From: a virus
Taxonomy: Duplodnaviria; Caudoviricetes
Length of the DNA: 64,000 nt
Virus record (IMG/VR): IMGVR_UViG_3300031857_000007
Strand: one strand, 5' to 3'
Below are positions 1,206 through 62,363 of this stretch, in pieces. Made by a program: the position numbers and the translations under genes. Below the pieces are notes generated by a model that was not told the DNA's origin, did not search any database, and saw only the letters and a program-made list of their open reading frames with translations. The stretch's first letter is position 1. Every line of letters begins with the position of its first letter.

Positions 1206-2759
1206 TTAGAATTGCAAAATAACTTTTATATCTTCTTTTTGATTTGAAGACCTTGTTATTGAAGGTCTATTGTCAACATAAATTATATTTCCAGAATATT
1301 TTTTAACTTCTGGATCAGAAACTCCATCGACAAAAGTTTGTCCAAGATAATATGTCCTACTATTTATTGTAGTTGAGACACCACTAAAACTTGTGTCTAT
1401 ACCTAGATTGACACTTCCTCCATAAATTGTTAGCGAACCTCCGGATATTGGATTTGCACTAAATTCATTCATATCATATCCATAGATTGGTGTCGTATTT
1501 CTTGATCCATCACTATTAAAACCAACAAGAGTTCTATCTTGCCAGTATTTAAGAACTCCAGTGTCTTGGTCATAGAAAACAACCCTACCAACAGCCGTTA
1601 TGCCAAGACCTATAGTTTGAGTAATAAAACTATTTTCAGTAAAGACCGCTGTGCTATATCCACTACCAACAAGTTTTAATGCTGACAAACAACTTGCTTT
1701 AGATAAAGTCAATATTGAATCCGAATTAAAACTTTCTGGATTTTCTATAATTCCAATTCTAGCAATCTTATTGCCTACAACAAAATCTGGATTTTGTATA
1801 TCATTTTCAATTCTAGAATAAATTAAGATATTGTATGCGCCCAGTTCTCGGTATATGTCATATCCATGTCCACCTTTTGGTGGAATTATTAAATCAAACG
1901 TTGGTCTTGTAGAACCAGTTGGAACATTTCCAGATTCCAAATCAATTGTTCCGTATGTATATCCAGATCCACCTTTAGTTATCGTAACAGTATCAACTTT
2001 AGAATCATTATTGACCACAATAGTAGCTTCTGCTCCAGATCCATCACCCTTAATAGGAACCCTGGTATAAACTCTATTTGCAGTTCCTATACCAATACCT
2101 CTATTGGTAATAACTGCAATTTTTAGTTGACCACTAGTAGAAGCATTGTCCCTAACTGCAAAATTTTCTGCACTATTTTCCCAATCTGTTGGAACGGGAA
2201 TAAAATTAATAGAATCAAATTTTACAATGTCACTTGGTTTAATTGTATAGAGATATTTCCACACATATCCATCTCCACTAGAACCTGCAGATCTTGGTTC
2301 TAAGTCCGTAAATGTTGGTTCGTCTAAAGATGGTCTTCCTGTAGGATTTTCTGGATCTGTTCCATTATGTAGACAAATATACACTCTAAAATCACTATTT
2401 ACAACATAAAAATTTGAAGAATATATACTAGTAGCATTTGAAGGTTTAGATGTATTTGTCCTGCTAATATCATGACGATACATATCATAAGTGGTTCCGG
2501 AAGACCATGTTATTTTTCTAACCACTTGACGCACATCGTCACTTCCAATTTTTTTTAATGCTACGATAGTATCCCAATAATCGGATTCTTCGTTAAAATT
2601 ATCTTTAGGTGCAAGTGGTGAAGTATCCCAAGTGGAACTATAATCTGTTGCATTGGTCAAACCAACAAATGCATAATAAGAATTTGCTGAGGAAGTTGCT
2701 GCAGAAACAAAATTTTTTGCATTTAATATTCTAAATTGATCAGTTATAATTGCAGACAT
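1206..2759 (-). CDS. gp8: Baseplate wedge subunit gp8
   Basis: 517 aa with RKITWSSGTTYDMY, FYVVNSDFRVYICL and DGYVWKYLYTI motifs; lies in a gp25-gp6-gp7-gp8 run. Confidence 0.85.
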   Translation of the reverse strand: MSAIITDQFRILNAKNFVSAATSSANSYYAFVGLTNATDYSSTWDTSPLAPKDNFNEESDYWDTIVALKKIGSDDVRQVVRKITWSSGTTYDMYRHDISRTNTSKPSNATSIYSSNFYVVNSDFRVYICLHNGTDPENPTGRPSLDEPTFTDLEPRSAGSSGDGYVWKYLYTIKPSDIVKFDSINFIPVPTDWENSAENFAVRDNASTSGQLKIAVITNRGIGIGTANRVYTRVPIKGDGSGAEATIVVNNDSKVDTVTITKGGSGYTYGTIDLESGNVPTGSTRPTFDLIIPPKGGHGYDIYRELGAYNILIYSRIENDIQNPDFVVGNKIARIGIIENPESFNSDSILTLSKASCLSALKLVGSGYSTAVFTENSFITQTIGLGITAVGRVVFYDQDTGVLKYWQDRTLVGFNSDGSRNTTPIYGYDMNEFSANPISGGSLTIYGGSVNLGIDTSFSGVSTTINSRTYYLGQTFVDGVSDPEVKKYSGNIIYVDNRPSITRSSNQKEDIKVILQF

Positions 2760-2779
2760 TTTTAACGTTTTTTATTTAT

Positions 2780-14743: not shown

Positions 14744-14746
14744 TTC

Positions 14747-16699
14747 TTATAATCTTACTAAGTTCCCTGTGTCGTAGCTTGATGTAACTATGTATGTTGT
14801 GCCAGTATAGGATGTATTTTTGTATGGAAGGTTGAGATCAGAAATATCTGATCCAGATGCAATTTCATCCTTTAAGGTAGTAATGAAACTATTATTGACA
14901 TCCAACTGTAAATATAAATCTTTTAATCCTATCACATCATTTGATAATGGTATTGCGGATATTTCAATAATTGGTCTTCCTTCAAAGTTCTTTGAAGTGC
15001 CAACAATATTAACTGGATTTAGAAAAATTTCTCCTTTTAAATAATCTATTTTACCTACAGATTTTTTAATCGTTGAAGATTGAGTATCTGAATCCAATCT
15101 AAAGAAAAACAAAGAACCATATCTACCATCAGTCCCCGAATCTGGAATATCTGCCAGATATACAGTCCCTGTTATTCCTGCAATTTCAAATCCAGAAGAT
15201 TTAATATTGTATCCATTTCCACCCTCAACATAAAATTGATTTCCAAAACATATTTCATATTCTGCCAAAGAATTTAATGTTGGACTTAAATCTCGTCTTA
15301 TTTGAATTCTTGTAATATTTGAGGTAATAGATTGATCTGAATTATCAATTATTTTTAGGAATTTGCTATACTTAAATTTTGCACCATATTTATTCAATTC
15401 CGAAGAATTTGCATATTCATTAATGTTATTAAGTACGCCCGTAGAAATATTACTTGGACTTGAAGAGAAATTAGTATTATAGTAAATTCTACTGTCAAAT
15501 TCAACATAAAGATATTTTAGGTCTAAAATTTCTGGAACTATTCCTGCTACACTATATTTTCTCAAGGAGGATATGATATTATCTTTGATTGAGTTTGGTA
15601 CAAATGCTCCGTTAGTTGGTTTTATAGTTATAAAAACTTTTCCATATTCTGGAGGATCTAAATTTTCACCCCCAAAAGCAGAAACTGATTCTGCTTCAGG
15701 ATAAATTTGAGGTACAATCGCTTCATAATCTGCAGCAGTTACAGCCCTATTTTGTGCTGCATATATTCTAGGAGCATATTTTTTAATCGAATTAATAGAT
15801 TCAATATCCTTTCCTCCCGCTGCTGACTGATCTGTTGTTAGATCTGATATATCGCTAGTTATAGTATTTCCTTCATTATCAATGATTCTTCCTGCAAAAG
15901 TGAAGTTACTTAGACCATTTGCCGAAGGTCCATTGGTAACAATATATGAAACTTCAATATAATTATTTGCAGATAGCTTTTTGCCAAAAATACCATCTCC
16001 AAATACCAATTCATATCTTTGATCTTCTATTTCTTGAATAAAGAAAACCTTTGATTCTGGACCAATATCAAATAAACTATCCGACAAATTATATTTTGTT
16101 GATGACGATGAATTCTGATTGTCTCTTACCTGAACACTTATTAGAGAAGAGTCAATATTTGCATTATTTAAAATAAATTTTTGATTTGGATTTAAAGAAT
16201 CTACTGTAAAATTAGAGGTTAGGTAGGTTCCTTCATAAATTTCAACATCTGAAAAAAATGCTATTTTATTTACAACTGGAACAGTGATATCATTTAATAT
16301 ACTAAAAGTGTAACTTTCTCTGCCAAAGGAAGTTGGTGTAGAGCAAACAATTCCTCTTTTTAAAGTTAAAGTCACAGGATTAAATGATAATTCTGTGGTA
16401 TCTACAAAAAAACTTATTTTAGATCTTGGGGAAATTCTAGATTTTGGTATATATCCAATATTTTTCGCAAGAGATACTACATTCTCTCGCAAAGTTGCAC
16501 TATCGATAAAAATTTCATTACTTATCATATTGGCATTATACGAAGAAATGTACGTATTATATGCCAATATATCTAAGATAATAGACAGATTAGATCCTTC
16601 GAAATCATAATCAGTAAAATTCGAGTTCAATCTAAGATAATCCTTTATTGAACTCTTAATATCGTTGAAATCTAAATTTGTAAAATTGACTAATGCCAT
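14747..16699 (-). CDS. gp6: Baseplate wedge subunit gp6
   Basis: LDFNDIKSSIKDYL, DYDFEGSNLSIILDILAYNTY and AQNRAVTAADY are gp6 motifs. Confidence 0.92.
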   Translation of the reverse strand: MALVNFTNLDFNDIKSSIKDYLRLNSNFTDYDFEGSNLSIILDILAYNTYISSYNANMISNEIFIDSATLRENVVSLAKNIGYIPKSRISPRSKISFFVDTTELSFNPVTLTLKRGIVCSTPTSFGRESYTFSILNDITVPVVNKIAFFSDVEIYEGTYLTSNFTVDSLNPNQKFILNNANIDSSLISVQVRDNQNSSSSTKYNLSDSLFDIGPESKVFFIQEIEDQRYELVFGDGIFGKKLSANNYIEVSYIVTNGPSANGLSNFTFAGRIIDNEGNTITSDISDLTTDQSAAGGKDIESINSIKKYAPRIYAAQNRAVTAADYEAIVPQIYPEAESVSAFGGENLDPPEYGKVFITIKPTNGAFVPNSIKDNIISSLRKYSVAGIVPEILDLKYLYVEFDSRIYYNTNFSSSPSNISTGVLNNINEYANSSELNKYGAKFKYSKFLKIIDNSDQSITSNITRIQIRRDLSPTLNSLAEYEICFGNQFYVEGGNGYNIKSSGFEIAGITGTVYLADIPDSGTDGRYGSLFFFRLDSDTQSSTIKKSVGKIDYLKGEIFLNPVNIVGTSKNFEGRPIIEISAIPLSNDVIGLKDLYLQLDVNNSFITTLKDEIASGSDISDLNLPYKNTSYTGTTYIVTSSYDTGNLVRL

Positions 16700-17101
16700 T
16701 TATCGTGACTGCTGTAATGCAAATGATAGTTGCTGAGGTAATGCCTCTATACCAATAATATAATATTTTATGACCACATTAAATTCATTGTTATCATAAT
16801 TTGGTGTAATATCAATACCTATTAAACTAACTCTAGGTTCATTATTTTTGATTGTAAGTTCAATTTCGCTTTTTAATATTGAAGCAGATATCTCATCAAT
16901 GTTTTCAAAGAGTAAACGCGATACTTTTGATCCAAATGTTTCATTAAAAAATTTTTCGCCCGTTCCATATAAAACTAAATTTCTAACGGATCGAGCGATT
17001 GCGGTTTCATTTTTAATTGTGAGAAGATCATAGTTCAGGGGACTCACCTGAAACGAAAGACTTATATCTTTAAATCCCTTTGAAATTCTTTCGACAGGCA
17101 T
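16700..17101 (-). CDS. gp25: Baseplate wedge subunit gp25
   Basis: 133 aa with AIARSVRNLV...GEKFFNETFGS and IKNNEPRV (GPW/gp25 family); directly upstream of gp6. Confidence 0.9.
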   Translation of the reverse strand: MPVERISKGFKDISLSFQVSPLNYDLLTIKNETAIARSVRNLVLYGTGEKFFNETFGSKVSRLLFENIDEISASILKSEIELTIKNNEPRVSLIGIDITPNYDNNEFNVVIKYYIIGIEALPQQLSFALQQSR

Positions 17102-17938: not shown

Positions 17939-18079
17939 TTATTTACCTTGTCCCCGATACTTCTTCTTACGTCCATTACGAGAAGTTGGTGAAAGTAATG
18001 TACGAGGAGAACGCCCCTGACGAGTTTTCTTGGGTGCTCCTGGTTCAAAGATTACCTTATTGTTTCCACCTTTAGCCAT
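17939..18079 (-). CDS. Small basic protein (46 aa)
   Basis: Manual translation: MAKGGNNKVIFEPGAPKKTRQGRSPRTLLSPTSRNGRKKKYRGQGK; GGAGG RBS upstream. Confidence 0.7.
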   Translation of the reverse strand: MAKGGNNKVIFEPGAPKKTRQGRSPRTLLSPTSRNGRKKKYRGQGK

Positions 18080-18235
18080 TTAAATTTCCTCCAGTTCAAT
18101 ATCAATAGGATCAAAAGACTTTTCCTCATAGAAGTTTTCGGAAAAATCTTGAAGAACCTCAGTACATTCTTCAATACTGAGGTTCGAATAAATTTTACGA
18201 CCTTTATAAAGGATATTGTAAAATTTTGTAGTCAT
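18080..18235 (-). CDS. Hypothetical protein (51 aa, probable start MTTKFY)
   Basis: ATG overlaps the upstream stop codon. Confidence 0.6.
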   Translation of the reverse strand: MTTKFYNILYKGRKIYSNLSIEECTEVLQDFSENFYEEKSFDPIDIELEEI

Positions 18236-19002
18236 CAGATAATACGAGTTTTTTCGTGTCCAACGCGAATTCGAGGATCGCACCAAATCTTAAATCCTTT
18301 CTCAATAGCGTCAAGACAGAACGAAACGTCTTCACCACACATATCTTGAACTTGCCCAGATTCAAAGACTTGCATCTTAGGAGCAAACCAAGGATATTCG
18401 AGATTTTCGAAGACTCCATTTTTAATCAGAACCCAACCAAATCCAGTGTAGTCAACAGTAAAAGGCTTACGACGCTTTGAGATTGATTCTACAGTCTCAT
18501 GATTCATGACTCCACCATTCTTACGGAAGTCGTCTTCCTCTAACCAGTGAGCCACTGAGGTTGTGTGCCCGTCTTCAGTTGCATACCAACCAGCAGAAAT
18601 AGGACGTTCCTCACCTTCTGCAGGAAATGCAAGGTCACAAAGTTGCCAGAATTTTTCTGAGTTAAAAACAATGTCATTATCAATCCATAGTTGATAATCA
18701 TATTGTAGTTTTCCATCCCAGGGAACTTGGTTTGGACCTCGGAGAACATTTGCGCCGAGAACTTTACACCTTGCAAAATTAACCATAGATGAGTAATCCT
18801 GAGAAATCTGGATACTCATTTCATTCTTTACTAGATCAAAGCATAGTTGTACGAATGACTTGAGGAATGTATAAGAACAACCTCTTCCAGGAAGACAAAA
18901 AACAATTGACTTCCCTCGCATTCTTTCTCTAATAGCATCATAATCCCACTCTTCAGTCTTGGTCTTAGGTGCTACCGTTTTAACAGTGAATCCTTTTGCC
19001 AT
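18235..19002 (-). CDS. Glycosyltransferase-A-fold-like protein
   Basis: YDYQLWIDNDIVF (DxD-like motif), YTGFGWVLIKNGVF, GEDVSFC and DPRIRVGHEK. Confidence 0.65.
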   Translation of the reverse strand: MAKGFTVKTVAPKTKTEEWDYDAIRERMRGKSIVFCLPGRGCSYTFLKSFVQLCFDLVKNEMSIQISQDYSSMVNFARCKVLGANVLRGPNQVPWDGKLQYDYQLWIDNDIVFNSEKFWQLCDLAFPAEGEERPISAGWYATEDGHTTSVAHWLEEDDFRKNGGVMNHETVESISKRRKPFTVDYTGFGWVLIKNGVFENLEYPWFAPKMQVFESGQVQDMCGEDVSFCLDAIEKGFKIWCDPRIRVGHEKTRII

Positions 19003-19026
19003 AAGTTTTAGTAACCTTCAAAATCA

Positions 19027-19055
19027 ATTTTATCGTCTTATTTAGTGTTTGTCAA
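19027..19055 (-). promoter_or_regulatory. Sigma70-type promoter with a nested T4-late-like promoter
   Basis: TTGACA-17 nt-TAAAAT, with CTAAATA inside the spacer. Confidence 0.7.
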
Positions 19056-19068
19056 TCTAAGAGGCCCC

Positions 19069-19260
19069 TCAAAAAGAAGAAGCGTTTATTATTTCTTTGT
19101 TAATTGCAAGTTCTTCATATTGTAGATCTTCTTTCTTAAATTTTACGTCAAGAACCTCAATCATTCTGTGCATCATTTCCCAGGTCTCCTCAAATTTGTT
19201 CTTTGGGAGATTGTGATATATGCACTTACCCTTTGCATATATGTGATATACTTTATCCAT
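19069..19260 (-). CDS. Hypothetical protein
   Basis: 63 aa ORF, collinear. Confidence 0.6.
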   Translation of the reverse strand: MDKVYHIYAKGKCIYHNLPKNKFEETWEMMHRMIEVLDVKFKKEDLQYEELAINKEIINASSF

Positions 19261-19590
19261 CTGAATAATATTTGAACGGCTTTCGCGTCGGTCCCATTAT
19301 ATATTCACTCACGGGATAGAAGTATTTTTACGGTTTCCTTTACACACAGCAAAATATACTCGAATTGCTCTCCGAGGGTCGTTTTATAATCGGAAATTTT
19401 TTTATCAGAAAATGGTTTATTCTCCACTTTTACCCTCCGGAAATTTTTTTAAGTATAATAACACTCTCGCTTTTTGTCACCTCTGTAGGTTAGGGTAGTT
19501 AACAATTTTTATAACGGGGGGCACGGCGGGGCGGGGGCGGCGGACCGCGCCCCATACAACTGCCCATCACGAACATGCCACTAACGAAGA

Positions 19591-19929
19591 TCAGACCCCA
19601 CGCCGCTCTAAGGCAGCGGAGCGGCGATCTGCGGCATACTGTGCTTTGGCACGGGCAACCACAGAATCAAGATCGCGAACCATCTCCTTACCGATTCCAC
19701 AAACGCGGGTCAGGGTCACACCCTTACCAGCACCCGCAACGGTGTCGCCAGTGGATCCGAAATCACCACCGCGAACGTTACCGATCGCTGCCCCTCTACC
19801 ATGCTGCGATTGACGCTGCCAGGTCTCACCCTTGCGAGCGTGGCGAGTGGGCAGGCGGCGGTAGGAAATTTCACCACGGCAGTCTGCCAGCAGGAGGTCA
19901 AGGCGGTTGGCGGTTTGAGCGTTGATCAT
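19591..19929 (-). CDS. Early hypothetical protein, Arg-rich (probable start MINAQT)
   Basis: ATG lies 22 nt downstream of the TACAAT -10 box; the longer start in the ORF track overlaps the promoter. Confidence 0.65.
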   Translation of the reverse strand: MINAQTANRLDLLLADCRGEISYRRLPTRHARKGETWQRQSQHGRGAAIGNVRGGDFGSTGDTVAGAGKGVTLTRVCGIGKEMVRDLDSVVARAKAQYAADRRSAALERRGV

Positions 19930-19951
19930 GGGATCGGTTGGCGACTTGTGA

Positions 19952-20009
19952 ATTGTAGCACGAAACGGGGTCACCCCCGCCCTGCGTGTGCCTCAGAGTA
20001 CTGGGCGGC
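19952..20009 (-). promoter_or_regulatory. Early promoter element, degenerate copy
   Basis: TACAAT at 19952-19957; half-site GTGCCTCA starts 30 nt away; GGGG-TGA-CCCC in the spacer. Confidence 0.5.
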
Positions 20010-20141
20010 GATGACGGTAGCGGGCACTCCCCAGTGAACGTAGGAGGAAGGGCGGGAACCGTTCTTCAGTTGATCGGCGCGGGAGATCCATTTGATCTGG
20101 CGGGTCTGGAGGTCAGAGCACATGGCGAGAGGGAAGCGCAT
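19971..20141 (-). CDS. Early hypothetical protein (56 aa)
   Basis: Manual translation MRFPLAMCSDLQTRQIKWISRADQLKNGSRPSSYVHWGVPATVIAAQYSEAHAGRG; downstream of a sigma70 promoter. Confidence 0.55.
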   Translation of the reverse strand: MRFPLAMCSDLQTRQIKWISRADQLKNGSRPSSYVHWGVPATVIAAQYSEAHAGRG

Positions 20142-20165
20142 TGGTCGTCTGTCGGTTGCTTGAGA

Positions 20166-20195
20166 ATTCTACAGGGTCAGGGGGGCAGGGGTCAA
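20166..20195 (-). promoter_or_regulatory. Sigma70-type promoter
   Basis: TTGACC-18 nt-TAGAAT; the -35 box overlaps the TGA stop of the upstream gene. Confidence 0.65.
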
Positions 20196-20374
20196 TACCC
20201 CAACCACACCAGGAACTCACCAGCGTCAACCCCGCCGAAGTCAGAGGTCGTGCCATAGTCGGTGCGGAAGTCATCCCACAGACCGTGCTGTTTGGCAGCG
20301 TGTGCCGCTTCGATCCAATAGATGGTGCCATTCTCAGGGTTGGTGATTTCAGCGATCAGGTCGGGGAAGGTCAT
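20192..20374 (-). CDS. Early hypothetical acidic protein (60 aa)
   Basis: ORF directly downstream of the promoter element at 20400-20458. Confidence 0.7.
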   Translation of the reverse strand: MTFPDLIAEITNPENGTIYWIEAAHAAKQHGLWDDFRTDYGTTSDFGGVDAGEFLVWLGY

Positions 20375-20399
20375 CGGTTGCCTTGCGGTTGACTCTGTA

Positions 20400-20458
20400 A
20401 TTCTACAGGGTCAGGAGCGCGATCCACAGGCGGCGGGGGACACTTGGCAAATTGTCTC
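20400..20458 (-). promoter_or_regulatory. Early promoter element
   Basis: TAGAAT at 20400-20405; palindrome GGGACACT-tggcaa-ATTGTCTC at 20437-20458; gap 31 nt. Confidence 0.65.
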
Positions 20459-20566
20459 TGCCTGCTTCTCTTGATATGAATTAATTGTGGCAGTGGCAGA
20501 CTGTACAAAAGTGGAGGCAATTGCAATGCAGAAGATTGCAAACATTGAAGGGAGAATTGCTCGCAT
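20411..20566 (-). CDS. Small predicted membrane/secreted protein (51 aa)
   Basis: Manual translation MRAILPSMFAIFCIAIASTFVQSATATINSYQEKQAETICQVSPAACGSRS; hydrophobic N-terminus. Confidence 0.5.
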   Translation of the reverse strand: MRAILPSMFAIFCIAIASTFVQSATATINSYQEKQAETICQVSPAACGSRS

Positions 20567-20590
20567 TGTACTTATAAAATTAATGTCAGA

Positions 20591-20758
20591 TCAGAATTGA
20601 ATCGCGGTCAAAGTAGGGGCACTGATTGAAGCATAATGTGCGGCACAATCGTTGATGTTCTCCTGTTCAATGTCGCTGGTGATAGTTTCCAGAATCTGGA
20701 GAATGTCGGATCCGTTGTTACCTTGACGCAGAAGGGAAAGAGCCAGTTCGCGGGACAT
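20591..20758 (-). CDS. Early hypothetical protein (55 aa, probable start MSRELA)
   Basis: C-terminal part of track ORF 20591..21019; the upstream part overlaps the real gene at 20823..21068. Confidence 0.55.
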   Translation of the reverse strand: MSRELALSLLRQGNNGSDILQILETITSDIEQENINDCAAHYASISAPTLTAIQF

Positions 20759-20822
20759 TTGATCAAAAAAAGTTAATGTTTGGCGGAGTCTTTTTTGGGC
20801 GCTGCCATTCCCATTGTTCAGG

Positions 20823-21068
20823 TTAGAATGCCACCAATTGATCCAGATCCCATTGTGGCACAACCTGAACCTCAGCATAGGTGCTGGCGTTCTCTGCCAG
20901 CCAAGAATTGATGTGGCGGGTGGTGGTGGCGCTCCACTTGTGCTCTGTCCGCATCCAACCCTTACCAGGCACCAGAGCGGCGACAGGGGTGGAATAGGAG
21001 AACAGAACCTCAGTGCCATCCGCGAGGGAGACTTGAGTTTTGTTGCTGCCGATGGCGGAGACTTTCAT
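20823..21068 (-). CDS. Early hypothetical protein (81 aa)
   Basis: Protein-like VLFSYSTPVAA...WSATTTRHINSWL; follows a promoter element. Confidence 0.75.
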   Translation of the reverse strand: MKVSAIGSNKTQVSLADGTEVLFSYSTPVAALVPGKGWMRTEHKWSATTTRHINSWLAENASTYAEVQVVPQWDLDQLVAF

Positions 21069-21091
21069 GGCGGGTTGCCTGAACTGAGATC

Positions 21092-21151
21092 AGTATAAAG
21101 GGTCAGGGTGGGGGATCGGTGTCCCCCTTGTGCCAGTGCCTCAGTCGGCAT
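21092..21151 (-). promoter_or_regulatory. Early promoter element
   Basis: TATACT at 21092-21097; GTGCCAGT-gcctca-GTCGGCAT at 21130-21151; spacer hairpin GGGGGA-caccga-TCCCCC. Confidence 0.75.
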
Positions 21152-21332
21152 AAAGGGAGTTGAAATCCTCCACAAACTCCAGCGCCTCATCACCCGTCAT
21201 GCGGGAGATCATTTCACGGGCGATCGTTTCCCAGGAGTAGTGATCCGCCAGATCACAGATCGCCTCACGGGCATCGGAAGCGTAGCGGTGAGCGGCGGTG
21301 ATCTGAGCGTAGGTCATTTCCAGGCGGGACAT
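21141..21332 (-). CDS. Early hypothetical acidic protein (63 aa)
   Basis: ORF lies between two promoter elements; its stop codon is inside the next palindrome. Confidence 0.7.
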   Translation of the reverse strand: MSRLEMTYAQITAAHRYASDAREAICDLADHYSWETIAREMISRMTGDEALEFVEDFNSLYAD

Positions 21333-21355
21333 GGTAGATCGGTTGAACTGAGATC

Positions 21356-21414
21356 AGTATAAAGGGTCAGCGGTGCCCCCATATGGGTCTGGTGGACAGT
21401 GCCTCAGTTGGCAC
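21356..21414 (-). promoter_or_regulatory. Early promoter element
   Basis: TATACT at 21356-21361; TGGACAGT-gcctca-GTTGGCAC at 21393-21414; shares 26 identical nt (gaactgagatcagtataaagggtcag) with the copy at 21081. Confidence 0.75.
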
Positions 21415-22300
21415 ACTGGAAACGTCCGCTGTTGAAATTATGATAGGAGAACACCTCACGATTCACGAGTTTGAACATACCAAACTCATTGGTCATTACA
21501 TAACCCTCAGCGTCAATACGATTGCCGTTCACATAAGCAGCAGGACCATAATTGCGACACAAGTATACACAATCATCTTTGATAGACTTAACCAATGCCC
21601 ACAAGCGAATCAGGTTAGGATCACAATCAAAGTCCTCAGCAGCAACCTGTTCGCCAGCACGAATGCAGGCGTTGATTTGTTGTTTGATCTTTGCTGCTTC
21701 CTTATCAGAAACAAACTCACAAGCGGTAGACATTTGGCGGGCAAAGTCCACAACTTCTTTCACATCAGCAAACGATTCTTGATTGTAAAGAATGTATGCT
21801 TCAGGTTTCACAAACTTAACAGTTTCAGTATCATTCCAGATCGCACGGTCAGGCATTGCAACTGCTTCGCGCAGATCATTCTCTGCAAAGTAGCAAGTGT
21901 GAGGGGCAATGATAATCTGCTGAGAAACTACCTCAGAAAACTTGTAAGTAATCGTGTTGGGAGTATACTCATCGCTACCGCCAAAACCAATAAAATCACC
22001 TTGGTAGACAGTATTGGTGCGAGGAAGATAATCAAAGCAAGCATGAAGAATAGACGCAACCTCACCTTGATAGTGTTGATCAATTTCTTCATGAGAGTGA
22101 GCAATGCGAATCTTTTTCTTGTTAAAGACTGCTTTCGTTCCTACAAAGAACTCACCGTTTGCAGGATCAATTCCCCACACAATTGCGGGAGCACCATCAA
22201 TCTTAACGCTCAAAGTGCCAGGGGCAATGAACCAATCAAGACACGAAAGATCACCAGTGAGAATGGTATCTTCGGGGTGTTCGAGGTGTGTGTTTTTCAT
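21404..22300 (-). CDS. Conserved phage protein with a KxDG nucleotidyltransferase/ligase-like motif (DUF6267-like)
   Basis: 298 aa with NTHLEHPED, LSVKIDGAPAIVWG and VYQGDFIGF. Confidence 0.6.
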   Translation of the reverse strand: MKNTHLEHPEDTILTGDLSCLDWFIAPGTLSVKIDGAPAIVWGIDPANGEFFVGTKAVFNKKKIRIAHSHEEIDQHYQGEVASILHACFDYLPRTNTVYQGDFIGFGGSDEYTPNTITYKFSEVVSQQIIIAPHTCYFAENDLREAVAMPDRAIWNDTETVKFVKPEAYILYNQESFADVKEVVDFARQMSTACEFVSDKEAAKIKQQINACIRAGEQVAAEDFDCDPNLIRLWALVKSIKDDCVYLCRNYGPAAYVNGNRIDAEGYVMTNEFGMFKLVNREVFSYHNFNSGRFQCAN

Positions 22301-22306
22301 GCTCTT

Positions 22307-22365
22307 AGTATGGCAGAGAATTGAGCGGATCGCAAGAGGGCGTGTGCCAGTTCTCAGAGTGCCCC
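22307..22365 (-). promoter_or_regulatory. Early promoter element
   Basis: CATACT at 22307-22312; GTGCCAGT-tctcag-AGTGCCCC at 22344-22365; gap 31 nt. Confidence 0.7.
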
Positions 22366-22680
22366 ATTCTCATCAAGAATTCCCCACTGAATGGTTCCCT
22401 GATACATGCCAATGTAACGGTTTCCAATACTCAAACCAACGATTTCATCTTCACTATCACCAATCAGATTGACACTGAAATAGAAATAGTTGCTGATAGA
22501 ATCGGGGGTGCGGAATTTCATAACCTGAATTTTCTCCCAAAGAATAGTAGCAATTGCAGCAACGAATGCTGCGGCAGTGATTACAAAACTCTTCATATCT
22601 TGATAGAGTTTCTGATAATCAACCTCCTGCAGTTTCACGAACAGATCATCAGCAGGCGGGAAAGATTTGGTCAGTTCCAT
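22354..22680 (-). CDS. Hypothetical protein with one predicted TM helix
   Basis: 108 aa; hydrophobic segment FVITAAAFVAAIATILW. Confidence 0.65.
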   Translation of the reverse strand: MELTKSFPPADDLFVKLQEVDYQKLYQDMKSFVITAAAFVAAIATILWEKIQVMKFRTPDSISNYFYFSVNLIGDSEDEIVGLSIGNRYIGMYQGTIQWGILDENGAL

Positions 22681-22701
22681 TGTGAAGAAAAGGTGAAAGA
22701 A

Positions 22702-22875
22702 TCAGTTCAGGAAGGTTGCGGGATTGCCATAATCGGCAATGTGATGACCATTCAAACGAATCTCAGCGTAACCGAATTCCTCTGCCAAATCATAACAGAG
22801 ATCGTATGCCTGACCCTCATCACTCACAGACTGCGACTCATAAGGGGCAGAGGGGACGATAACTTCGTAACGCAT
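22702..22875 (-). CDS. Early hypothetical acidic protein (57 aa)
   Basis: Manual translation MRYEVIVPSAPYESQSVSDEGQAYDLCYDLAEEFGYAEIRLNGHHIADYGNPATFLN. Confidence 0.7.
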   Translation of the reverse strand: MRYEVIVPSAPYESQSVSDEGQAYDLCYDLAEEFGYAEIRLNGHHIADYGNPATFLN

Positions 22876-22897
22876 GAGGTTTGTTTGAACTGAAGTC

Positions 22898-22956
22898 AGT
22901 ATAGGGGGTCAGCGGTGCCCTTGTGGGGTTTTGGTGGACAGTTCAGGGATTGGACC
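22898..22956 (-). promoter_or_regulatory. Early promoter element
   Basis: TATACT at 22898-22903; TGGACAGT-tcaggg-ATTGGACC at 22935-22956; gap 31 nt. Confidence 0.7.
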
Positions 22957-22977
22957 GCCGCGGCCACTCAGTTTGTG

Positions 22978-23154
22978 TCACTTAACCACGATACGGTTCA
23001 ATTCTTCAAGTGTGCTCACATTCCAGTTGGCAATGTCACCATGGGGAGCATACAGTTTGCTATACCATTCCCCATACAATTCAGGATTAATGAGTTGCAC
23101 CTTCTCTAGAGTTTCTGCAATCTCAACATTCAAATTGTGTTGGAAATTAGTCAT
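22978..23154 (-). CDS. Hypothetical protein (58 aa)
   Basis: Manual translation MTNFQHNLNVEIAETLEKVQLINPELYGEWYSKLYAPHGDIANWNVSTLEELNRIVVK. Confidence 0.6.
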   Translation of the reverse strand: MTNFQHNLNVEIAETLEKVQLINPELYGEWYSKLYAPHGDIANWNVSTLEELNRIVVK

Positions 23155-23345
23155 CAACCCTCCAGCAGTTCGGGGTAGTATTCTTCACACTCGGTGATCA
23201 ATTCTTCATCAGAATACTTAGCATAACCCTCATCCAGATAATCATAACAAAGCTGCGTCATTGTCTTGAGATCCATGTCATCCAACATCTGCTGAATGAG
23301 TTGATCTTGGAGTTCAGAACGGTTCATGTTAGTGTCAGTTGCCAT
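23154..23345 (-). CDS. Highly acidic hypothetical protein (start may be 23327)
   Basis: 63 aa, D/E-rich; coupled to its neighbours. Confidence 0.7.
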   Translation of the reverse strand: MATDTNMNRSELQDQLIQQMLDDMDLKTMTQLCYDYLDEGYAKYSDEELITECEEYYPELLEG

Positions 23346-23448
23346 TGATGATGTTCCAGAATTGTTTAGAGTTTGCCCCAGGAATGTGGGGAAGTTTCTT
23401 CTCCCAGTATCCTGTGATGTGACGATACCAAACTTTCAGGATGTTCAT
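23335..23448 (-). CDS. Small hypothetical protein (37 aa)
   Basis: Manual translation MNILKVWYRHITGYWEKKLPHIPGANSKQFWNIINGN. Confidence 0.5.
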   Translation of the reverse strand: MNILKVWYRHITGYWEKKLPHIPGANSKQFWNIINGN

Positions 23449-23451
23449 GAT

Positions 23452-23577
23452 TCAGTAATCGTATTCGCCGTTAATGTAATCCGTGAGGTTAAAATCTTCT
23501 TCTTTCAGTTCAGGAATGTCCAGATCGAAGATCTCACCAGGCATGTCTTGAATCTCTTGCCACATTTCATCAAACAT
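23452..23577 (-). CDS. Very acidic mini-protein (41 aa)
   Basis: Manual translation MFDEMWQEIQDMPGEIFDLDIPELKEEDFNLTDYINGEYDY; GAGGGAG RBS upstream. Confidence 0.65.
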   Translation of the reverse strand: MFDEMWQEIQDMPGEIFDLDIPELKEEDFNLTDYINGEYDY

Positions 23578-23602
23578 TGGTGTCTCCCTCAGGAACAAAC
23601 GT

Positions 23603-23660
23603 AGTATGGCACCGATCAGGGCACGAATCAACCGATGGTGGACAGTACGGGAACTGGCTC
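23603..23660 (-). promoter_or_regulatory. Early promoter element
   Basis: CATACT at 23603-23608; TGGACAGT-acggga-ACTGGCTC at 23639-23660. Confidence 0.7.
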
Positions 23661-23785
23661 ACGAACCCTCTGGCTGCCGCCCAGGAGGCGCTAGAATGGG
23701 GTCACAAGCGAATGAGGGGTGAGGTAGCCCTGCGGACGACAATTATCGACACTGAAGCAGCTTTGAAATATTAATTGCAAAGTAT

Positions 23786-23812
23786 AAAAAAAGGGAGGCA
23801 TTGTGCCCCCCC
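23786..23812 (-). terminator. Intrinsic terminator after the ArdA-like gene
   Basis: GGGGGGCA-caa-TGCCTCCC-TTTTTTT. Confidence 0.8.
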
Positions 23813-23819
23813 ATTTGAT

Positions 23820-24257
23820 TCAGTGATCGCGGAAGATATGCATCGAACGATAAGAAGTTCCATCGTTACATGCAGTGAAATCATAACGCAACGAAGTCTC
23901 CCAAGTTGCTTCCCAATCCACTACAATTCCAGAAGGGATATCATAACCCATATCATCATAGAAAGATTCAGCAAACTCTGCCTCATCATTGAAGCAACCT
24001 TGATAACGCTCATCACAGCATTCAATATCACTCATGCAACCAACTTCGCCAATGAGAGCATCAACTGCCTCGTATCCGATTGCTTCACCACAACGAACAT
24101 ACTCCTCGTAATAGTTACAGAAGTCGTCCTCATTGTAGGTATCAATGAACTCCAACATGTCATCCAGAGCGTAGTTATCTTCCAGACGCTCTTCAATGAA
24201 CTCTACAGTTTGAACATTCAGAGTTTCTTTGTAGTTAGCGGTCAGGGTGATCGACAT
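23820..24257 (-). CDS. ardA: ArdA-like antirestriction (DNA mimic) protein
   Basis: 145 aa, extremely acidic; C-terminal YQGCFNDEAEFAESFYDD...VDWEATWETSLRYDF resembles the ArdA C-terminal pattern. Confidence 0.65.
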   Translation of the reverse strand: MSITLTANYKETLNVQTVEFIEERLEDNYALDDMLEFIDTYNEDDFCNYYEEYVRCGEAIGYEAVDALIGEVGCMSDIECCDERYQGCFNDEAEFAESFYDDMGYDIPSGIVVDWEATWETSLRYDFTACNDGTSYRSMHIFRDH

Positions 24258-34686: not shown

Positions 34687-35916
34687 TCAGCGCCTGACAA
34701 TGCTGACGGCAACCTCACCTTGCTTGAAGATGATGTCCACCACATTCTGGACTGCCTTCGCAGTGCCCGTAGATGCCTTGTCAAAGACCGGGCAGACCAC
34801 CAGACCATAGGATTTAGTGTAGGACGACAGGTCGCCTGCCTGAATGGCGCCAGAGCGGATTCCAGCGGCGTCTTGGGGGTGCAGACGCAGCGTCCGACCA
34901 ACGGTCTGACCGATGCCCACAACGTCCATAGAGCGCAAGAACACGACCGCTTCCAGAGCAGAAATGTTGATGCCTTCTGCCAGAATGCTGTGATGCAGGA
35001 CCACAAACTTTTTGTCAGGGTCTTTGCCCCAAGCATTCAGAGTGTCAAAAAACACCTCACGATTGACCTTCTGCCCATCAATAAATGCACCGTGCTTGGC
35101 AGTAATGTGCAGCACAGAGTAACCTTGCTCGGCAATCTGGTCTGCAAAGTCAGATTCAGACAGCAGAGCAATGATGTGGCGAGTTGCCTTTGCACACACC
35201 AGAATCTTATCGACAGGATTGTCCTGAATGATTTGCATCAGATACTCACAGTCCCGTTGAGCAATATCCTCACCCTTGACGGACAGACGCATTGGAGCAG
35301 TAATCACTTTGGGAGGAATGATATAGCCACCCTGTACCAATTCAGGAGCAGGAACTTTGGCGATGATATTACCGTAGACAGCAACATCATTCATACCAGG
35401 TTTGGCAACGGTGGCAGAATACTTGGGAGTTGCAGTAAAGAAGTAGCAACGCTTTGCTTCAGCAGCAAAATGCTCTACAGCAGGAAAGAAGTGACGTTGA
35501 ACGCTATTGTGTGCCTCATCAAAGTAAATCGTATCCACCTCAATATCTGCCTTTGCAAGTTGCTGCAGAGAATTGTAAGTGGTGAAAATCAGTTTGTGAC
35601 CTTGAGTTTGCTCATACCAAGTGCGAATCGCATTGGGACGAGTGCTGCTGAAGTGATGAGTCTCACCACTGTGAATGTGCATCACAGAAGCATTAGTGAT
35701 AAACTCAAGGTATTCAGCAGACAACTGCTCTGCCAGGAGGATGCGCGGCGCCGTCACTACAATAGTCTTGGGGGTGCTAGACTGAAACACACGAATAGCA
35801 TCAAAAATGCCCACGTTGGTCTTACCACCACCGGTAGGAAACACACAGATACCTTTGAGATGCTGTGCCAGAGCATCCAGAGCAACTTGTTGGTGAGGGC
35901 GAAGTTGGTACATCAT
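34687..35916 (-). CDS. SF2 DEAH-box helicase (ResIII-like)
   Basis: PTGGGKT (Walker A), DEAH, ILAEGIN and QTVGRTLR motifs. Confidence 0.9.
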   Translation of the reverse strand: MMYQLRPHQQVALDALAQHLKGICVFPTGGGKTNVGIFDAIRVFQSSTPKTIVVTAPRILLAEQLSAEYLEFITNASVMHIHSGETHHFSSTRPNAIRTWYEQTQGHKLIFTTYNSLQQLAKADIEVDTIYFDEAHNSVQRHFFPAVEHFAAEAKRCYFFTATPKYSATVAKPGMNDVAVYGNIIAKVPAPELVQGGYIIPPKVITAPMRLSVKGEDIAQRDCEYLMQIIQDNPVDKILVCAKATRHIIALLSESDFADQIAEQGYSVLHITAKHGAFIDGQKVNREVFFDTLNAWGKDPDKKFVVLHHSILAEGINISALEAVVFLRSMDVVGIGQTVGRTLRLHPQDAAGIRSGAIQAGDLSSYTKSYGLVVCPVFDKASTGTAKAVQNVVDIIFKQGEVAVSIVRR

Positions 35917-45399: not shown

Positions 45400-45942
45400 T
45401 TATTTATATTTGCTCATCCAATACTTGTGTAGAAATCCCAAAATATAATCATCGCCAGGACGCTCTTTACTTAACTTATTTTCTATACCGTTATTCCACC
45501 ATTTTTTTCCAAAAGATGGATTATTTTCTCCCGATAGTCCTTTACTCATATTGTGTCTGTGTTCTTTCGTAAATATTTTTTTCTTTGCTGCCTCACTTAA
45601 TTTTCGTTTATGTTCATCTGTAAATTTCTTACCTTTATGACTATCACTTAACTTCTTTTTAGTTTCATCACTTAAACGGCGACCAGCACATCCTTCTCCA
45701 CCGTCAGTCATATTTCTCAAAATACCTGTTCCCAAATCTTTTCGACCAAGGACAGCAATCATATAAATCTCGTGCTTTCTTGCTTCTTCATCGGTAAGAT
45801 TTTTCTTTAAATAAATTATTCTTTCTTTTTCTTTAGGAACAGCAATTCTATGTAAATTATTAGTAATTCTTCCTGCCTTACCCTTACCAATATAATAAGG
45901 TGTGCCGTCTTCACGCAAATAAGCGTAAGTGTAGTATTCCAT
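45400..45942 (-). CDS. GIY-YIG-type homing endonuclease with NUMOD3 repeats (probable start MEYYTYAY)
   Basis: YYTYAYLREDGTPYYIGKG; ETKKKLSDSHKGKKFTDEHKRKLSEA repeats; GENNPSFGK. Confidence 0.85.
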   Translation of the reverse strand: MEYYTYAYLREDGTPYYIGKGKAGRITNNLHRIAVPKEKERIIYLKKNLTDEEARKHEIYMIAVLGRKDLGTGILRNMTDGGEGCAGRRLSDETKKKLSDSHKGKKFTDEHKRKLSEAAKKKIFTKEHRHNMSKGLSGENNPSFGKKWWNNGIENKLSKERPGDDYILGFLHKYWMSKYK

Positions 45943-46039
45943 CTGCTTTTTGTTTGTGGTAATAATATTTATACAAGAAAAGGAGCATTTCTGCTCCCAT
46001 TCTTTACTTTTGAATAACCACAAACAAAAGCATTATTAT

Positions 46040-46369: not shown

Positions 46370-46831
46370 TTATTTTTTATTCTTACCCCTGTAGGTGTCT
46401 GTTTGAGCGTGACAGTTGGGGCACAGGATGCGAAGGTTTTCTAAACGATTATCGTGATGGTTGCCGTTTATGTGGTCAAGTTCAATAGGTGCTGGTTTTC
46501 CATTCCACTCCGTTATACCACAGCACTCGCACTTATGTTGTTTGAGACCTTCTGCTATTAATCGTTTTTTAAATTTATGCGATTGGTGATATGAATTTTC
46601 AGTCAAATAATATTCAATAGGTTTTTTAGTGTAATCGTGTGTTTTTCCTCTTAAGTGTGCTTGCCCAGTAAAATGAGAATCATCAAGATTTAGAGTTTTT
46701 ATTCTTTTTTGAGCAACTTCATAGTTTCCACCTGCTTGTTTTAAATTAAGTTTGGATAAAACTTGTCTAATACTCGTGGAAGTTTTGACTGCCTCTATAA
46801 ATTGCTCATCAGTATATTTACGATTAGACAT
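46370..46831 (-). CDS. HNH homing endonuclease
   Basis: CECCG...IELDHINGNHHDNRLENLRILCPNCH; TATAAATA at 46855-46862 upstream. Confidence 0.9.
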   Translation of the reverse strand: MSNRKYTDEQFIEAVKTSTSIRQVLSKLNLKQAGGNYEVAQKRIKTLNLDDSHFTGQAHLRGKTHDYTKKPIEYYLTENSYHQSHKFKKRLIAEGLKQHKCECCGITEWNGKPAPIELDHINGNHHDNRLENLRILCPNCHAQTDTYRGKNKK

Positions 46832-46879
46832 AACTTAAACGGAAAACTCATTATTATTTATATTGCTATGTCTTTTAAG

Positions 46880-46954
46880 TAGCGGTGGCGAGATTCGAAC
46901 TCGCACTGTATTGATTTTAAGTCAACTGCCTGCTGCCGATTGGGCTACACCGCC
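46880..46954 (-). tRNA. trnL: tRNA-Leu(UAA) with a short variable loop
   Basis: Cloverleaf GGCGGTG...CACCGCT-A; anticodon loop CT-TAA-AA; T-arm GCGAG-TTCGAAT-CTCGC; no encoded CCA. Confidence 0.9.
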
Positions 46955-46963
46955 AATAAGACC

Positions 46964-46992
46964 ATTATAACTCAAAGAGTTGTAGTGGTCAA
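46964..46992 (-). promoter_or_regulatory. Sigma70 promoter for tRNA-Leu
   Basis: TTGACC-17 nt-TATAAT between the two tRNA genes. Confidence 0.7.
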
Positions 46993-46993
46993 G

Positions 46994-47067
46994 TGCTCGT
47001 TGAGAGAATCGAACTCTTCCTACGGCGCTTTATGAGAACGCTGCCTTCACCAGATGGCTAAACGAGC
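46994..47067 (-). tRNA. tRNA with CAU anticodon (elongator Met or lysidine Ile2; not resolved)
   Basis: GCTCGTT/AACGAGC acceptor stem; loop CT-CAT-AA; TTCGATT T-loop. Confidence 0.85.
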
Positions 47068-47096
47068 ATTCGCTATTCGCAAATAAAGAATAGCAA

Positions 47097-47184
47097 TACG
47101 AGTGCCTGGATTCGAACCAGGTCAAAGCCGCTAATCTGGCGGAAAGAGTTTATAAGACTCCTCTGACTACCAAGTCTCACTCGC
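47097..47184 (-). tRNA. Atypical tRNA with UAU anticodon (Ile by anticodon) and a long variable arm
   Basis: GCGAGTG/CACTCGT-A acceptor; GACT-TGGT-AGTC D-arm; GGAGT-CTTATAA-ACTCT anticodon arm; CCGC-CAGATTA-GCGG variable arm; CCTGG-TTCGAAT-CCAGG T-arm. Confidence 0.75.
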
Positions 47185-47192
47185 TTCTGCGT

Positions 47193-47366
47193 TTATGATG
47201 CCTCGTTATTATACTCAGTGTGTATTCGTATGAGGTCATCATCGGCAGGTATCATAACTGCTGCTCTACCATTCTCGTCTACTATACCTAAACTCTCTCC
47301 GTTTTCCACTCTTTCAATTAGTTCGTCAAAACGTTCTTGAAACTCTGCCACTGTGAAAACTTCCAT
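47193..47366 (-). CDS. Phd/YefM-like antitoxin-fold protein (57 aa)
   Basis: Manual translation MEVFTVAEFQERFDELIERVENGESLGIVDENGRAAVMIPADDDLIRIHTEYNNEAS; TATAAATA at 47380-47387. Confidence 0.65.
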   Translation of the reverse strand: MEVFTVAEFQERFDELIERVENGESLGIVDENGRAAVMIPADDDLIRIHTEYNNEAS

Positions 47367-47395: not shown

Positions 47396-47596
47396 TCACT
47401 GCCCATAAATGGCAAGATCAGCATACTCAATCTGCTCAGGGTCAAGTTGAGCGGTGACAACTTCCAACACATTCATAAACTCTTCTACAGTATCACACTC
47501 AACCAAACGCTCGCTGCCCTGGTCGCTGAGGAGAAGGAAGGTGCGGGTGCATACATCAATCACAATGCCCTGGACGGTTTCTTGTGCAGTGCTCAT
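47396..47596 (-). CDS. Hypothetical protein
   Basis: 66 aa behind a consensus promoter. Confidence 0.75.
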   Translation of the reverse strand: MSTAQETVQGIVIDVCTRTFLLLSDQGSERLVECDTVEEFMNVLEVVTAQLDPEQIEYADLAIYGQ

Positions 47597-47622: not shown

Positions 47623-47651
47623 ATTATAGGGCAGCTGGGGGCGGGTGTCAA
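47623..47651 (-). promoter_or_regulatory. Consensus sigma70 promoter
   Basis: TTGACA-17 nt-TATAAT. Confidence 0.85.
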
Positions 47652-57344: not shown

Positions 57345-58064
57345 CTAGGCGAAAAAACTTGTTAGACCCTCCAATACTACTTCACTTTCCACTTCAGTAT
57401 TTGGATTTGTAACTTTAATAGTATGAGAAAGTTTAGGCATTGTTTCAAAAAACTTTTCAATGTCTTTAAACTGTTGAGAAGTTAGTTGCTCAAGAAATTC
57501 CTTAAGTTCTTTTTTTGTTACATCAGAAGATGACCAAGACTCTTCTTCACTATAAATCTGCTCAATACAAGAGGTAATCATATCAAATGTTTCATCAACA
57601 GAAATTTCAGATCCAGCAATAAAATTACTCTTGACAAATTCTTGCATTGATGGATATCTCATTCTCAAAGTTAAACTATCATCAAGTTTGATATCTCTCG
57701 AATGGTCTTCTCTAAACTCAACTTCAATATCATCTAGATTGATACTTACAGGAACTTGTGTATTTCCATCATCGGGACAAGTAATTAAAACATCAACGGT
57801 TTCACCAACAGATTTTCCACGAATGTTGAGGAACAAATATTCAATATCAAAAGTTGCAAGTTGCTCAATCTTAATTCCACGAGTAACAATGCAATTGCCA
57901 ATTACTGTTTTTACTGCTTCAGCAATTTGCTTTGGGTCTTCACTTTCCATTGCAATGATTAAAACCTTTTCTTCCTTCACAAGAAATGGGCGATACTTGA
58001 TACTTTTCTTTAGAGAAGGAATTTCCAACTCATAGGTCGGTGTTGAAATTTTTGGTAAAGGCAT
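57345..58064 (-). CDS. gp26: Baseplate hub subunit gp26
   Basis: MPLPKISTPTYEL...YRPFLVKEEK...FLNIRGKSVGE. Confidence 0.9.
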   Translation of the reverse strand: MPLPKISTPTYELEIPSLKKSIKYRPFLVKEEKVLIIAMESEDPKQIAEAVKTVIGNCIVTRGIKIEQLATFDIEYLFLNIRGKSVGETVDVLITCPDDGNTQVPVSINLDDIEVEFREDHSRDIKLDDSLTLRMRYPSMQEFVKSNFIAGSEISVDETFDMITSCIEQIYSEEESWSSSDVTKKELKEFLEQLTSQQFKDIEKFFETMPKLSHTIKVTNPNTEVESEVVLEGLTSFFA

Positions 58065-61439: not shown

Positions 61440-62363
61440 TCAGTCTTCGGCAAGTTTTGCGAAGTACGAAAGTGCGTCATCATCCTCATCTTCTTCCACT
61501 GGAGCAGCAGCACGACGAGTGGGTTGAAGATTATTCAGTTCGCTACGAAGACCATCATCAAGGTCCCTTGCAGAACCACGAGAATACTCTTCCTCGTTAT
61601 CAACTTCTTCATCGAGACGCACAGACTTTGCACCAAGCACTGAATCAAGACGCTTCTTCAATTCTTCATAAGTCTTGAATTGGTCAGGAGCAACAAATTC
61701 GGTAAGAGAATACTGCTTCTTCCAGATTGCTTCCATTGCATCATCATCGTCCAGAAGAGCTCCAACCGAAGCAAACTCACTGGAATCATAGTTACGATAA
61801 CCAGCAACACTCTTTGCCTTCAGTTTGAAGTTTGCACCTTGCCAGAAGTCAAAGGCATTAATCGGAGTTTCGTCCTCATATTCAGGTTGCATTGCTTCCA
61901 TAATCTTATCAAAGATTTTCTTACCATACTTGAAGAGGAAGACTTTACCTTCGTTTTCAGGATTGGCAGGGTCTTTGACGACATAAACATTGCTGACATA
62001 AGTCAGTTTACGCTTCTGCTTACGGGCAACTTCTTTGCCAGCATCAGTGCCATTATTCCAGAGTCCAGAGTTGTGCTCGCACACAGGGCACTTTTGATTC
62101 ACGGTAGTCAGGCACGTATCAATTAACCAACCACCAGGACCTTGAAATGCGTGACTATAAACTTTGACAAACGGAATATCTTCCCCATTAGGAGCAGGAA
62201 GAAAACGGATTACGGCATAACCATTATTTGACTTATCTACACTCAACTTCCAAAAGCGGTCATCACTAGAACTTTCGGAGTTATTCATTTTTTCTACTTC
62301 TTTCACCAGTTTTTCGGTGAGAGAACCAAGTTTGGATTGCTTCTTAAGATTTTCGAATGACAT
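61440..62363 (-). CDS. gp32: Single-stranded DNA-binding protein gp32
   Basis: AVIRFLPAP, CPVCE, YGKKIFDKI, FDFWQGANFKLK and an acidic tail. Confidence 0.95.
   Translation of the reverse strand: MSFENLKKQSKLGSLTEKLVKEVEKMNNSESSSDDRFWKLSVDKSNNGYAVIRFLPAPNGEDIPFVKVYSHAFQGPGGWLIDTCLTTVNQKCPVCEHNSGLWNNGTDAGKEVARKQKRKLTYVSNVYVVKDPANPENEGKVFLFKYGKKIFDKIMEAMQPEYEDETPINAFDFWQGANFKLKAKSVAGYRNYDSSEFASVGALLDDDDAMEAIWKKQYSLTEFVAPDQFKTYEELKKRLDSVLGAKSVRLDEEVDNEEEYSRGSARDLDDGLRSELNNLQPTRRAAAPVEEDEDDDALSYFAKLAED

Follow-up and report, generated by a model that had tools for sequence, protein, structure and literature searches.

Which amino acid does a tRNA carry when it joins a UAU anticodon to a long extra arm, and what is the arm for? 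The question is raised by an 88-nt gene in a 64,000-nt stretch of viral DNA (IMG/VR record IMGVR_UViG_3300031857_000007), the whole of which is called the window here. The window derives from a T4-like cyanophage, with baseplate and tail genes and a hub/lysozyme product 85.5% identical to that of Synechococcus phage S-SRM01.

Structure and conservation of the 88-nt tRNA

The features of the locus are collected in Table 1. The first-pass annotation had described an 88-nt tRNA with UAU, a long extra arm and a 4-nt D loop, and all of these are seen in the sequence, as are G1-U72, A73, the lone A8 linker, the 4-bp D stem with its UGGU loop, and the CCGC/GCGG stem of the extra-arm hairpin. Features beyond that description are a 7-bp anticodon stem, a 6-nt gap separating the extra arm from the T stem, the lack of an encoded CCA and an extra-arm loop that is an invariant 7-mer centered on GAU. 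The first anticodon loop reads CU-UAU-AA, and the anticodon stem is separated from the T stem by 21 nt that contain the GAU hairpin. Minimum-energy and centroid predictions both give the cloverleaf (-31.1 kcal/mol, z -2.6). At its gathering score Rfam missed the gene, the best weak match being tRNA-Sec (RF01852) at 29.7 bits against a 47-bit cut-off.

Table 1. Features of the tRNA locus, and genes of the window that lack ATA codons.
Feature	Position	Strand	Remarks
Sigma-70-type promoter	47623-47651	-	perfect 12/12; consensus match only
DUF7294 ORF	47396-47596	-	66 aa; putatively on the same transcript as the UAU tRNA
Phd/YefM-like ORF	47193-47366	-	57 aa; directly upstream of the UAU tRNA; 28.7 bits, just below the 29.8 cut-off
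tRNA gene, two anticodon-type arms (UAU, then GAU)	47097-47184	-	88 nt; compact D arm; no encoded CCA
Acceptor stem, 5' strand	47178-47184	-	partner 47098-47104; G1-U72; discriminator A73 at 47097
Linker A8 and D arm	47165-47177	-	single linker base; 4-bp stem, 4-nt loop with invariant GG
A26 and UAU anticodon arm	47143-47164	-	7 bp; anticodon 47152-47154; top three pairs shared with the alternative helix
Second anticodon-type arm	47128-47142	-	4-bp covarying stem; 7-nt loop CAGAUUA; GAU at 47134-47136
Linker CUUUGA	47122-47127	-	6 nt; first four bases able to pair with nt 26-29 (47161-47164) in the alternative fold
T arm	47105-47121	-	canonical; 5 bp; loop UUCGAAU
CAU-anticodon tRNA	46993-47067	-	ARAGORN: tRNA-Met; G1-C72, U3-A70, C4-G69, 3-bp D stem
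tRNA-Leu(UAA)	46879-46954	-	own 11/12 promoter at 46964-46992
Zero-ATA genes (DUF6267, helicase, hub, gp32-like)	18235-22300, 34687-35916, 57345-58064, 61440-62363		

The same tRNA is present in S-SRM01 (100% identical) and S-SKS1 (82%), unannotated in both, and relatives were found on more than 119 IMG/VR contigs, at least 120 distinct members with the compact D arm being parsed. Covariation among homologs, a check suggested at first pass, was confirmed in all five stems: over 54 aligned distinct relatives, 99.5% of cells pair, and both-side changes occur at 19 of 27 pairs, in all five helices. Among 104 relatives, G1-U72 is kept in 94 and A73 in all 104, pair 3-70 is always Watson-Crick, and CCA is encoded in 61. 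On this sequence record, the 88-nt gene encodes a genuine tRNA that has been conserved.

Two Nostoc genomes have copies as well, next to an integrase-like ORF. A relaxed pattern run over 401 genomes of the cyanobacterial phylum gave nothing above background except the known Nostoc copy (1/401), and blastn against plasmids gave chance matches only; the compact UAU+GAU tRNA is mainly phage-borne. One Nostoc copy (L151:1249-1337) adjoins the integrase-like ORF at 1488-2018, which points to a possible integration site or mobile element.

The GAU second loop also recurs on tRNA bodies that are unrelated and have a normal D arm, S-CRM01 included. In S-CRM01 the two-arm UAU tRNA (L003:2904-2993) has no annotation and a D arm of another type; it is followed by a compact-type 3'-half remnant (~2995-3060), an arrangement which suggests that one tRNA form was replaced by the other. 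Small unexpected variable-arm hairpins lacking a GAU loop were seen as well in phage tRNAs with CAU, GUU, GCA, UGU, UGG or UUU anticodons (L144, L261, L301, L335, L243, L253, L318, L211 and L320).

The second anticodon-type arm

Long variable arms normally mark Leu, Ser, Tyr and Sec tRNAs, as the first-pass annotation pointed out, but the arm found here is not of class II. Across relatives the stem of the arm varies with compensation while its loop stays constant as C(A/C)-GAU-(U/C)A, and the "variable arm" is best described as a second anticodon-type hairpin centered on GAU, the normal isoleucine anticodon. The tie between GAU and UAU appeared from both sides. An anticodon-blind pattern scan returned UAU in 119 of the 119 tRNA matches listed, and a loop-only scan found UAU upstream in 128/128 distinct hairpin matches, the remaining 11 matches not being tRNAs. 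When only UAU and a long arm were required, GAU lay in register in 22/24 clusters versus 7/208 Leu, Ser and Tyr arms, the clusters being defined at <80% identity and their sequences not fully independent. The second loop ends 9-10 nt before the T stem, as an ordinary tRNA anticodon loop does, while the distance between the two loops ranges from 9 to 15, and in some members (L364, L295, L352) it is the exact canonical Ile loop or precedes a class I variable-loop sequence.

The bases flanking the two anticodons differ. U33 and A37 are both present in the first loop in 165/165 sequences, whereas the second has U33 in 4/165 and A37 in 12/165 and is dominated by A33 and U37, unlike a real Ile loop. 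Because the first loop has U33 and A37 and the second mostly does not, the UAU arm is taken to be the decoding loop. A compact-D sub-family of at least two lineages carries GAC, a Val anticodon, in place of GAU in its second loop (L279:7870-7961(+), L628, L632, L639, L621, L630, L644, L648 and L652). The prediction that these members read AUA as Val failed, as ATA still aligns as Ile in the contigs tested (lnL Ile -464, Val -521).

We consider it likely that the second loop is selected for a job linked to tRNA-Ile. Mimicry of an AUN codon was set aside, since the G that precedes AU never varies, and an H-type pseudoknot between the GAU loop and the linker was ruled out by geometry (0-1-nt loops). 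Cyanobacteria are not known to have T-boxes, and a T-box target for the second arm was set aside on that ground. A search of the open-access literature returned no description of a UAU+GAU two-arm tRNA. Cyanophage tRNA-Ile(TAT) genes had been noted earlier, their structure not being treated (PMC3152331). Within the literature searched the two-arm layout appears to be new, and the charging principle proposed below is possibly new.

Reading of AUA in the carrier genomes

In homologs, the ATA columns of window genes hold Ile at 0.32, Val at 0.19, Leu at 0.15 and Ser at 0.005 (77 columns); they resemble ATT/ATC columns and differ from those for Leu (L 0.53) and for Ser. Log-likelihoods for these columns were -164 for Ile, -189 for Val, -203 for Leu and -259 for Met. 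At the level of selection, AUA is Ile in the carrier genome, evidence that bears on the 88-nt tRNA indirectly, as an Ile2-type tRNA adjoins it. That neighbor, the CAU tRNA, is most likely of the Ile2 (lysidine) type, resembling the cyanobacterial Ile2 tRNA more than elongator Met, and comes after 37 of ~55 members of the compact-D UAU sub-type. Since it probably covers AUA, the column test does not prove that the UAU tRNA carries Ile. Likely AUA readers stand side by side elsewhere too: there are two in the window phage and three in each of four further loci (L042, L054, L056, L058).

Charging with Leu or Ser, with AUA recoded or made ambiguous in the manner of allo-tRNAs or nev-tRNAs, was the lead proposal of the first-pass annotation. 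It can draw on A73 and the long arm, on the leucylation in vitro of nematode nev-tRNA-Ile(UAU) (PMC3333845) and on the Ser mis-inserted by allo-tRNAs. Bacterial LeuRS needs an A15-U48 pair and A20a, and A73 and C2-G71 count against SerRS (PMC9976931). The 88-nt tRNA has the A73 of a bacterial tRNA-Leu, but its 4-nt D loop leaves no room for an A15-U48 pair or A20a; where a tRNA-Ser would have G73 and no C2-G71 antideterminant, it has A73 and C2-G71. In addition, the ATA columns align with Ile and Val rather than with Leu or Ser, one structural gene of 3987 aa contains 144 ATA codons, and the loop of the arm is sequence-fixed on GAU. With Leu/Ser identity elements absent and ATA columns Ile-like, wholesale recoding is therefore rejected. 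The proposal is unsupported and Leu/Ser charging very improbable, low-level AUA ambiguity being compatible with the column test.

Nematode nev-tRNA-Ile(UAU) shares UAU, a long arm and A73 with the 88-nt tRNA (PMC3333845, PMC4300185). Its arm is a synthetase identity element, whereas the arm described here displays the cognate Ile anticodon. The nev-tRNA is eukaryotic, derives from tRNA-Leu in its D and V arms and can be charged with Leu in vitro, mistranslation not having been observed in vivo (PMC3333845, PMC4300185), while the 88-nt tRNA stands in a cyanophage context and has no Leu D arm.

The fallback given at first pass, a TilS-independent tRNA-Ile, fits best. The gene has the U33-UAU-A37 loop, the A73 and the tRNA fold of a tRNA-Ile(UAU) and lacks the short class I variable loop. 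It is most likely an Ile-type AUA reader. Its closest functional counterparts are the TilS-independent tRNA-Ile(UAU) of the Mycoplasma mobile type (PMC3575796) and the short cyanomyovirus tRNA-Ile(TAT) (PMC3152331), which share with it UAU, U33, A37 and A73; the M. mobile type reads AUA as Ile in the absence of lysidine, as the 88-nt tRNA presumably does. These counterparts are class I cloverleaves of 72-76 nt, to which the 88-nt tRNA adds the GAU arm, the compact D arm and the 7-bp anticodon stem.

Use of ATA was compared among phages. The share of ATA among Ile codons is 35% in the window baseplate genes and, for S-SRM01, S-SKS1 and S-CRM01, 18-28% in the regions richest in it; phages that have a short UAU tRNA range over 4-38%, and those where no AUA tRNA was found over 1-8%, a comparison of few genomes and of regions not strictly homologous. 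Use of ATA in the window depends on the gene, from 35-41% in the baseplate genes (1206-17101) to zero in the four genes listed last in Table 1. At 18001-24000 the window has a G+C content of 43-51%, compared with ~31% upstream, and some of its long ORFs on the opposite strand are probably shadow ORFs.

A role outside translation, as a tRNA-like regulatory RNA or an integration target, has been proposed for most allo-tRNA(UAU), and the variants tested were inactive as suppressors. The Nostoc copy beside an integrase-like ORF would suit such a role, and the Ile2-type neighbor could cover AUA. We regard it as decidedly improbable for the 88-nt tRNA, whose stems are intact and covarying, whose U33, A37 and A73 are invariant, whose relatives often encode CCA (61/104) and which is embedded in tRNA clusters, its carriage accompanying high ATA use.

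The allo-tRNA(UAU) group (Mukai et al., PMC5389517) shares UAU, a D tetraloop, a long anticodon stem and a long extra arm with the 88-nt tRNA, as far as the main text describes it, and is characterized there by "possible five-stem-junction structures" and a location near toxin-antitoxin genes. The D stem of the 88-nt tRNA, at 4 bp, is shorter than in allo-tRNA. In that main text the acceptor/T branch of allo-tRNAs is 8/4 or 9/3 and the discriminator mostly G73 or U73, both of which give Ser identity; the 88-nt tRNA has a 7/5 branch with covariation in both stems. Neither the G73/U73 discriminator for Ser nor a G3-U70 pair for Ala occurs in its relatives. The GAU loop is absent from the main text of that paper, whose description sets the 88-nt tRNA apart, and the five-stem group could overlap the two-arm family.

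Possible roles of the GAU arm

As the main reading, to which we give a probability of roughly 40%, we propose a tRNA-Ile of the phage in which the UAU arm decodes and the GAU arm aids charging. The UAU arm would read AUA as Ile and support the AUA-rich late genes, TilS not being needed. The second arm has GAU where the ordinary anticodon lies relative to the T arm and would not be used on the ribosome; it would serve as a recognition handle that raises charging by a host IleRS of the Trp type, which disfavors U34. E. coli IleRS (W905) charges a UAU tRNA at ~1%, and M. mobile solved this problem in the enzyme (PMC3575796), by a synthetase changed to Arg865; the sampled cyanobacterial IleRS keep the Trp equivalent to W905 (10/10 readable sequences). 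In the S. aureus IleRS complex, bases are contacted at positions 34 and 35, and no second loop has lost either of these two, even among the GAC variants.

Other evidence counts against the handle. The persistence of the GAC second-loop sub-family with AUA still read as Ile is one such point. Another concerns t6A37, on which recognition by bacterial IleRS depends strongly: position 37 of the GAU loop is U, where t6A cannot form. The modification is dispensable in Synechocystis (PMC7694415). Short ordinary UAU tRNAs that lack a GAU arm are found in the same slot in S-SM2, S-B43 and S-B05 and elsewhere in S-SCSM1, S-SSM7 and B3, the last being the phage that uses ATA most (0.38). Short and two-arm UAU tRNAs occur together at seven loci. 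Since UAU tRNAs without the arm persist, the GAU arm is not required and would be at most an enhancer. A function as IleRS handle is possible, and we advance it tentatively. The short UAU tRNAs that follow the Phd-like ORF in S-B43, S-SM2 and S-B05 (L571:1674-1747, L572:1672-1745, L574:1674-1747) have G1-U72 and a 3-bp D stem.

The short tRNAs lend weight to another account, in which an ordinary tRNA-Ile is charged through its UAU arm as they are, and the GA(U/C) loop, descended from a GAU tRNA, is kept for structural docking or for another partner such as a modifying or processing enzyme. The GAC variants, the dominance of A33 and U37 in the second loop and the UAU fold as ground state agree with this account. 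If the loop were purely structural, GAU should not return in register on unrelated bodies as often as the anticodon-only scan found, set against the Leu, Ser and Tyr arms, and we judge the account rather unlikely.

If IleRS reads the second loop, the GAU arm must take the anticodon position, and in the compact sub-family an exchange of strands could bring this about. There, two partners are available to nt 27-29, the UUU on the 3' side of the UAU arm and the linker on the 3' side of the GAU arm, and in this gene both folds put a 7-nt loop (UAU or GAU) 12 layers from the elbow/D loop. The anticodon stem of tRNA-Sec has 6 layers, and D stem plus anticodon stem amount to 12 layers in both tRNAs, as 4+1+7 here and 6+6 in tRNA-Sec. 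The bacterial tRNA-Sec also shares the 4-nt D loop with GG and the long arm; the 88-nt tRNA differs in having no UCA anticodon, no G73 and no 13-bp acceptor/T domain, and it falls below the Rfam cut-off.

In the proposed switch, nt 26-29 would change pairing partner; the GAU arm would then occupy the anticodon position during charging, and the UAU arm would return to that position for decoding. The alternative helix pairs 3/3 in 117/120 members, compared with 12% for shuffled linkers. A preset test for a non-U partner in the anticodon stem gave mostly chance matches and two informative clades, both of which fit both pairings, one only being a clean compensation: in the Nostoc clade A28 is replaced by C and both partners by G instead of U, a single clean three-way compensation among related sequences. 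This result lends weak support to strand exchange, and a base triple could be another cause of the covariation at nt 26-29. The switched state is ~5.6 kcal/mol worse than the UAU fold in the nearest-neighbor model, the UAU fold being the ground state. As a general rule, strand exchange was ruled out for the class with normal D arms (2.28 observed, 2.36 shuffled). A natural tRNA whose identity and decoding are split over two anticodon arms by a strand-exchange switch, with GAU presented to IleRS and UAU to the ribosome, is an idea we hold with some doubt, as probably not correct in this full form. Such a tRNA would let a phage gain an AUA reader which the host IleRS would charge poorly if it lacked the second arm.

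The equal reach of the two folds, together with ATT being the most used Ile codon in the window phage (53 per 1000), might also suit a dual decoder, either arm entering the ribosome and a single tRNA serving AUA and AUU/AUC. With U33 lacking from the second loop in 161/165, mostly no purine at 37, and a normal GAU tRNA also encoded by several carriers, we find this hardly credible.

The neighborhood of the gene bears on a further function. The order is promoter, DUF7294 ORF, Phd/YefM-like ORF, UAU tRNA, CAU tRNA, tRNA-Leu(UAA) and HNH gene, and transcription of both small ORFs and of the tRNAs would be expected to start from the 12/12 promoter. The Phd/YefM-like ORF occupies the same slot in S-SKS1, S-SRM01, S-SM2 and S-B43; it is an orphan with no toxin adjoining, and relatives occur in 22 cyanophage records, often beside tRNAs. 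The spacer between the UAU and CAU tRNAs (47068-47096(-)) forms a hairpin of -11.4 kcal/mol with its flanks, possibly a processing signal. Two free-standing homing-endonuclease-like genes (46370-46831(-), 45400-46023(-)) come after the tRNA cluster, and in S-SRM01 an HNH gene lies between the UAU and CAU tRNAs.

This setting suggests a protective role, raised at first pass too as a decoy for anticodon nucleases: where host anticodon nucleases or toxins attack tRNA-Ile, the GAU arm might serve as decoy or shield, being cleaved in its own loop while the decoding arm stays intact, with the Phd-like ORF in the same counter-defence unit. The orphan ORF directly upstream, the perfect match to a host-type promoter consensus and the conserved slot are in keeping with this, and cyanophage antitoxins have been proposed as counter-defence (PMC9964418). 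The Phd-like ORF, however, also precedes short UAU tRNAs or no UAU tRNA at all, the second loop lacks U33 and A37, PrrC needs t6A, and no cognate nuclease was identified, and we consider a decoy improbable.

Whatever the mechanism, the tRNA architecture described here is abundant, has escaped both Rfam and GenBank annotation, and is present in the cultured phages S-SRM01, S-SKS1 and S-CRM01. Textbook tRNAs use one anticodon for both synthetase recognition and decoding. If the charging proposal is true, a non-decoding second cognate anticodon in a widespread natural tRNA would mean that recognition and decoding are separable. It would also explain how phages read AUA without lysidine where the host IleRS disfavors U34, and would provide a design rule for codon reassignment with anticodon-reading synthetases.
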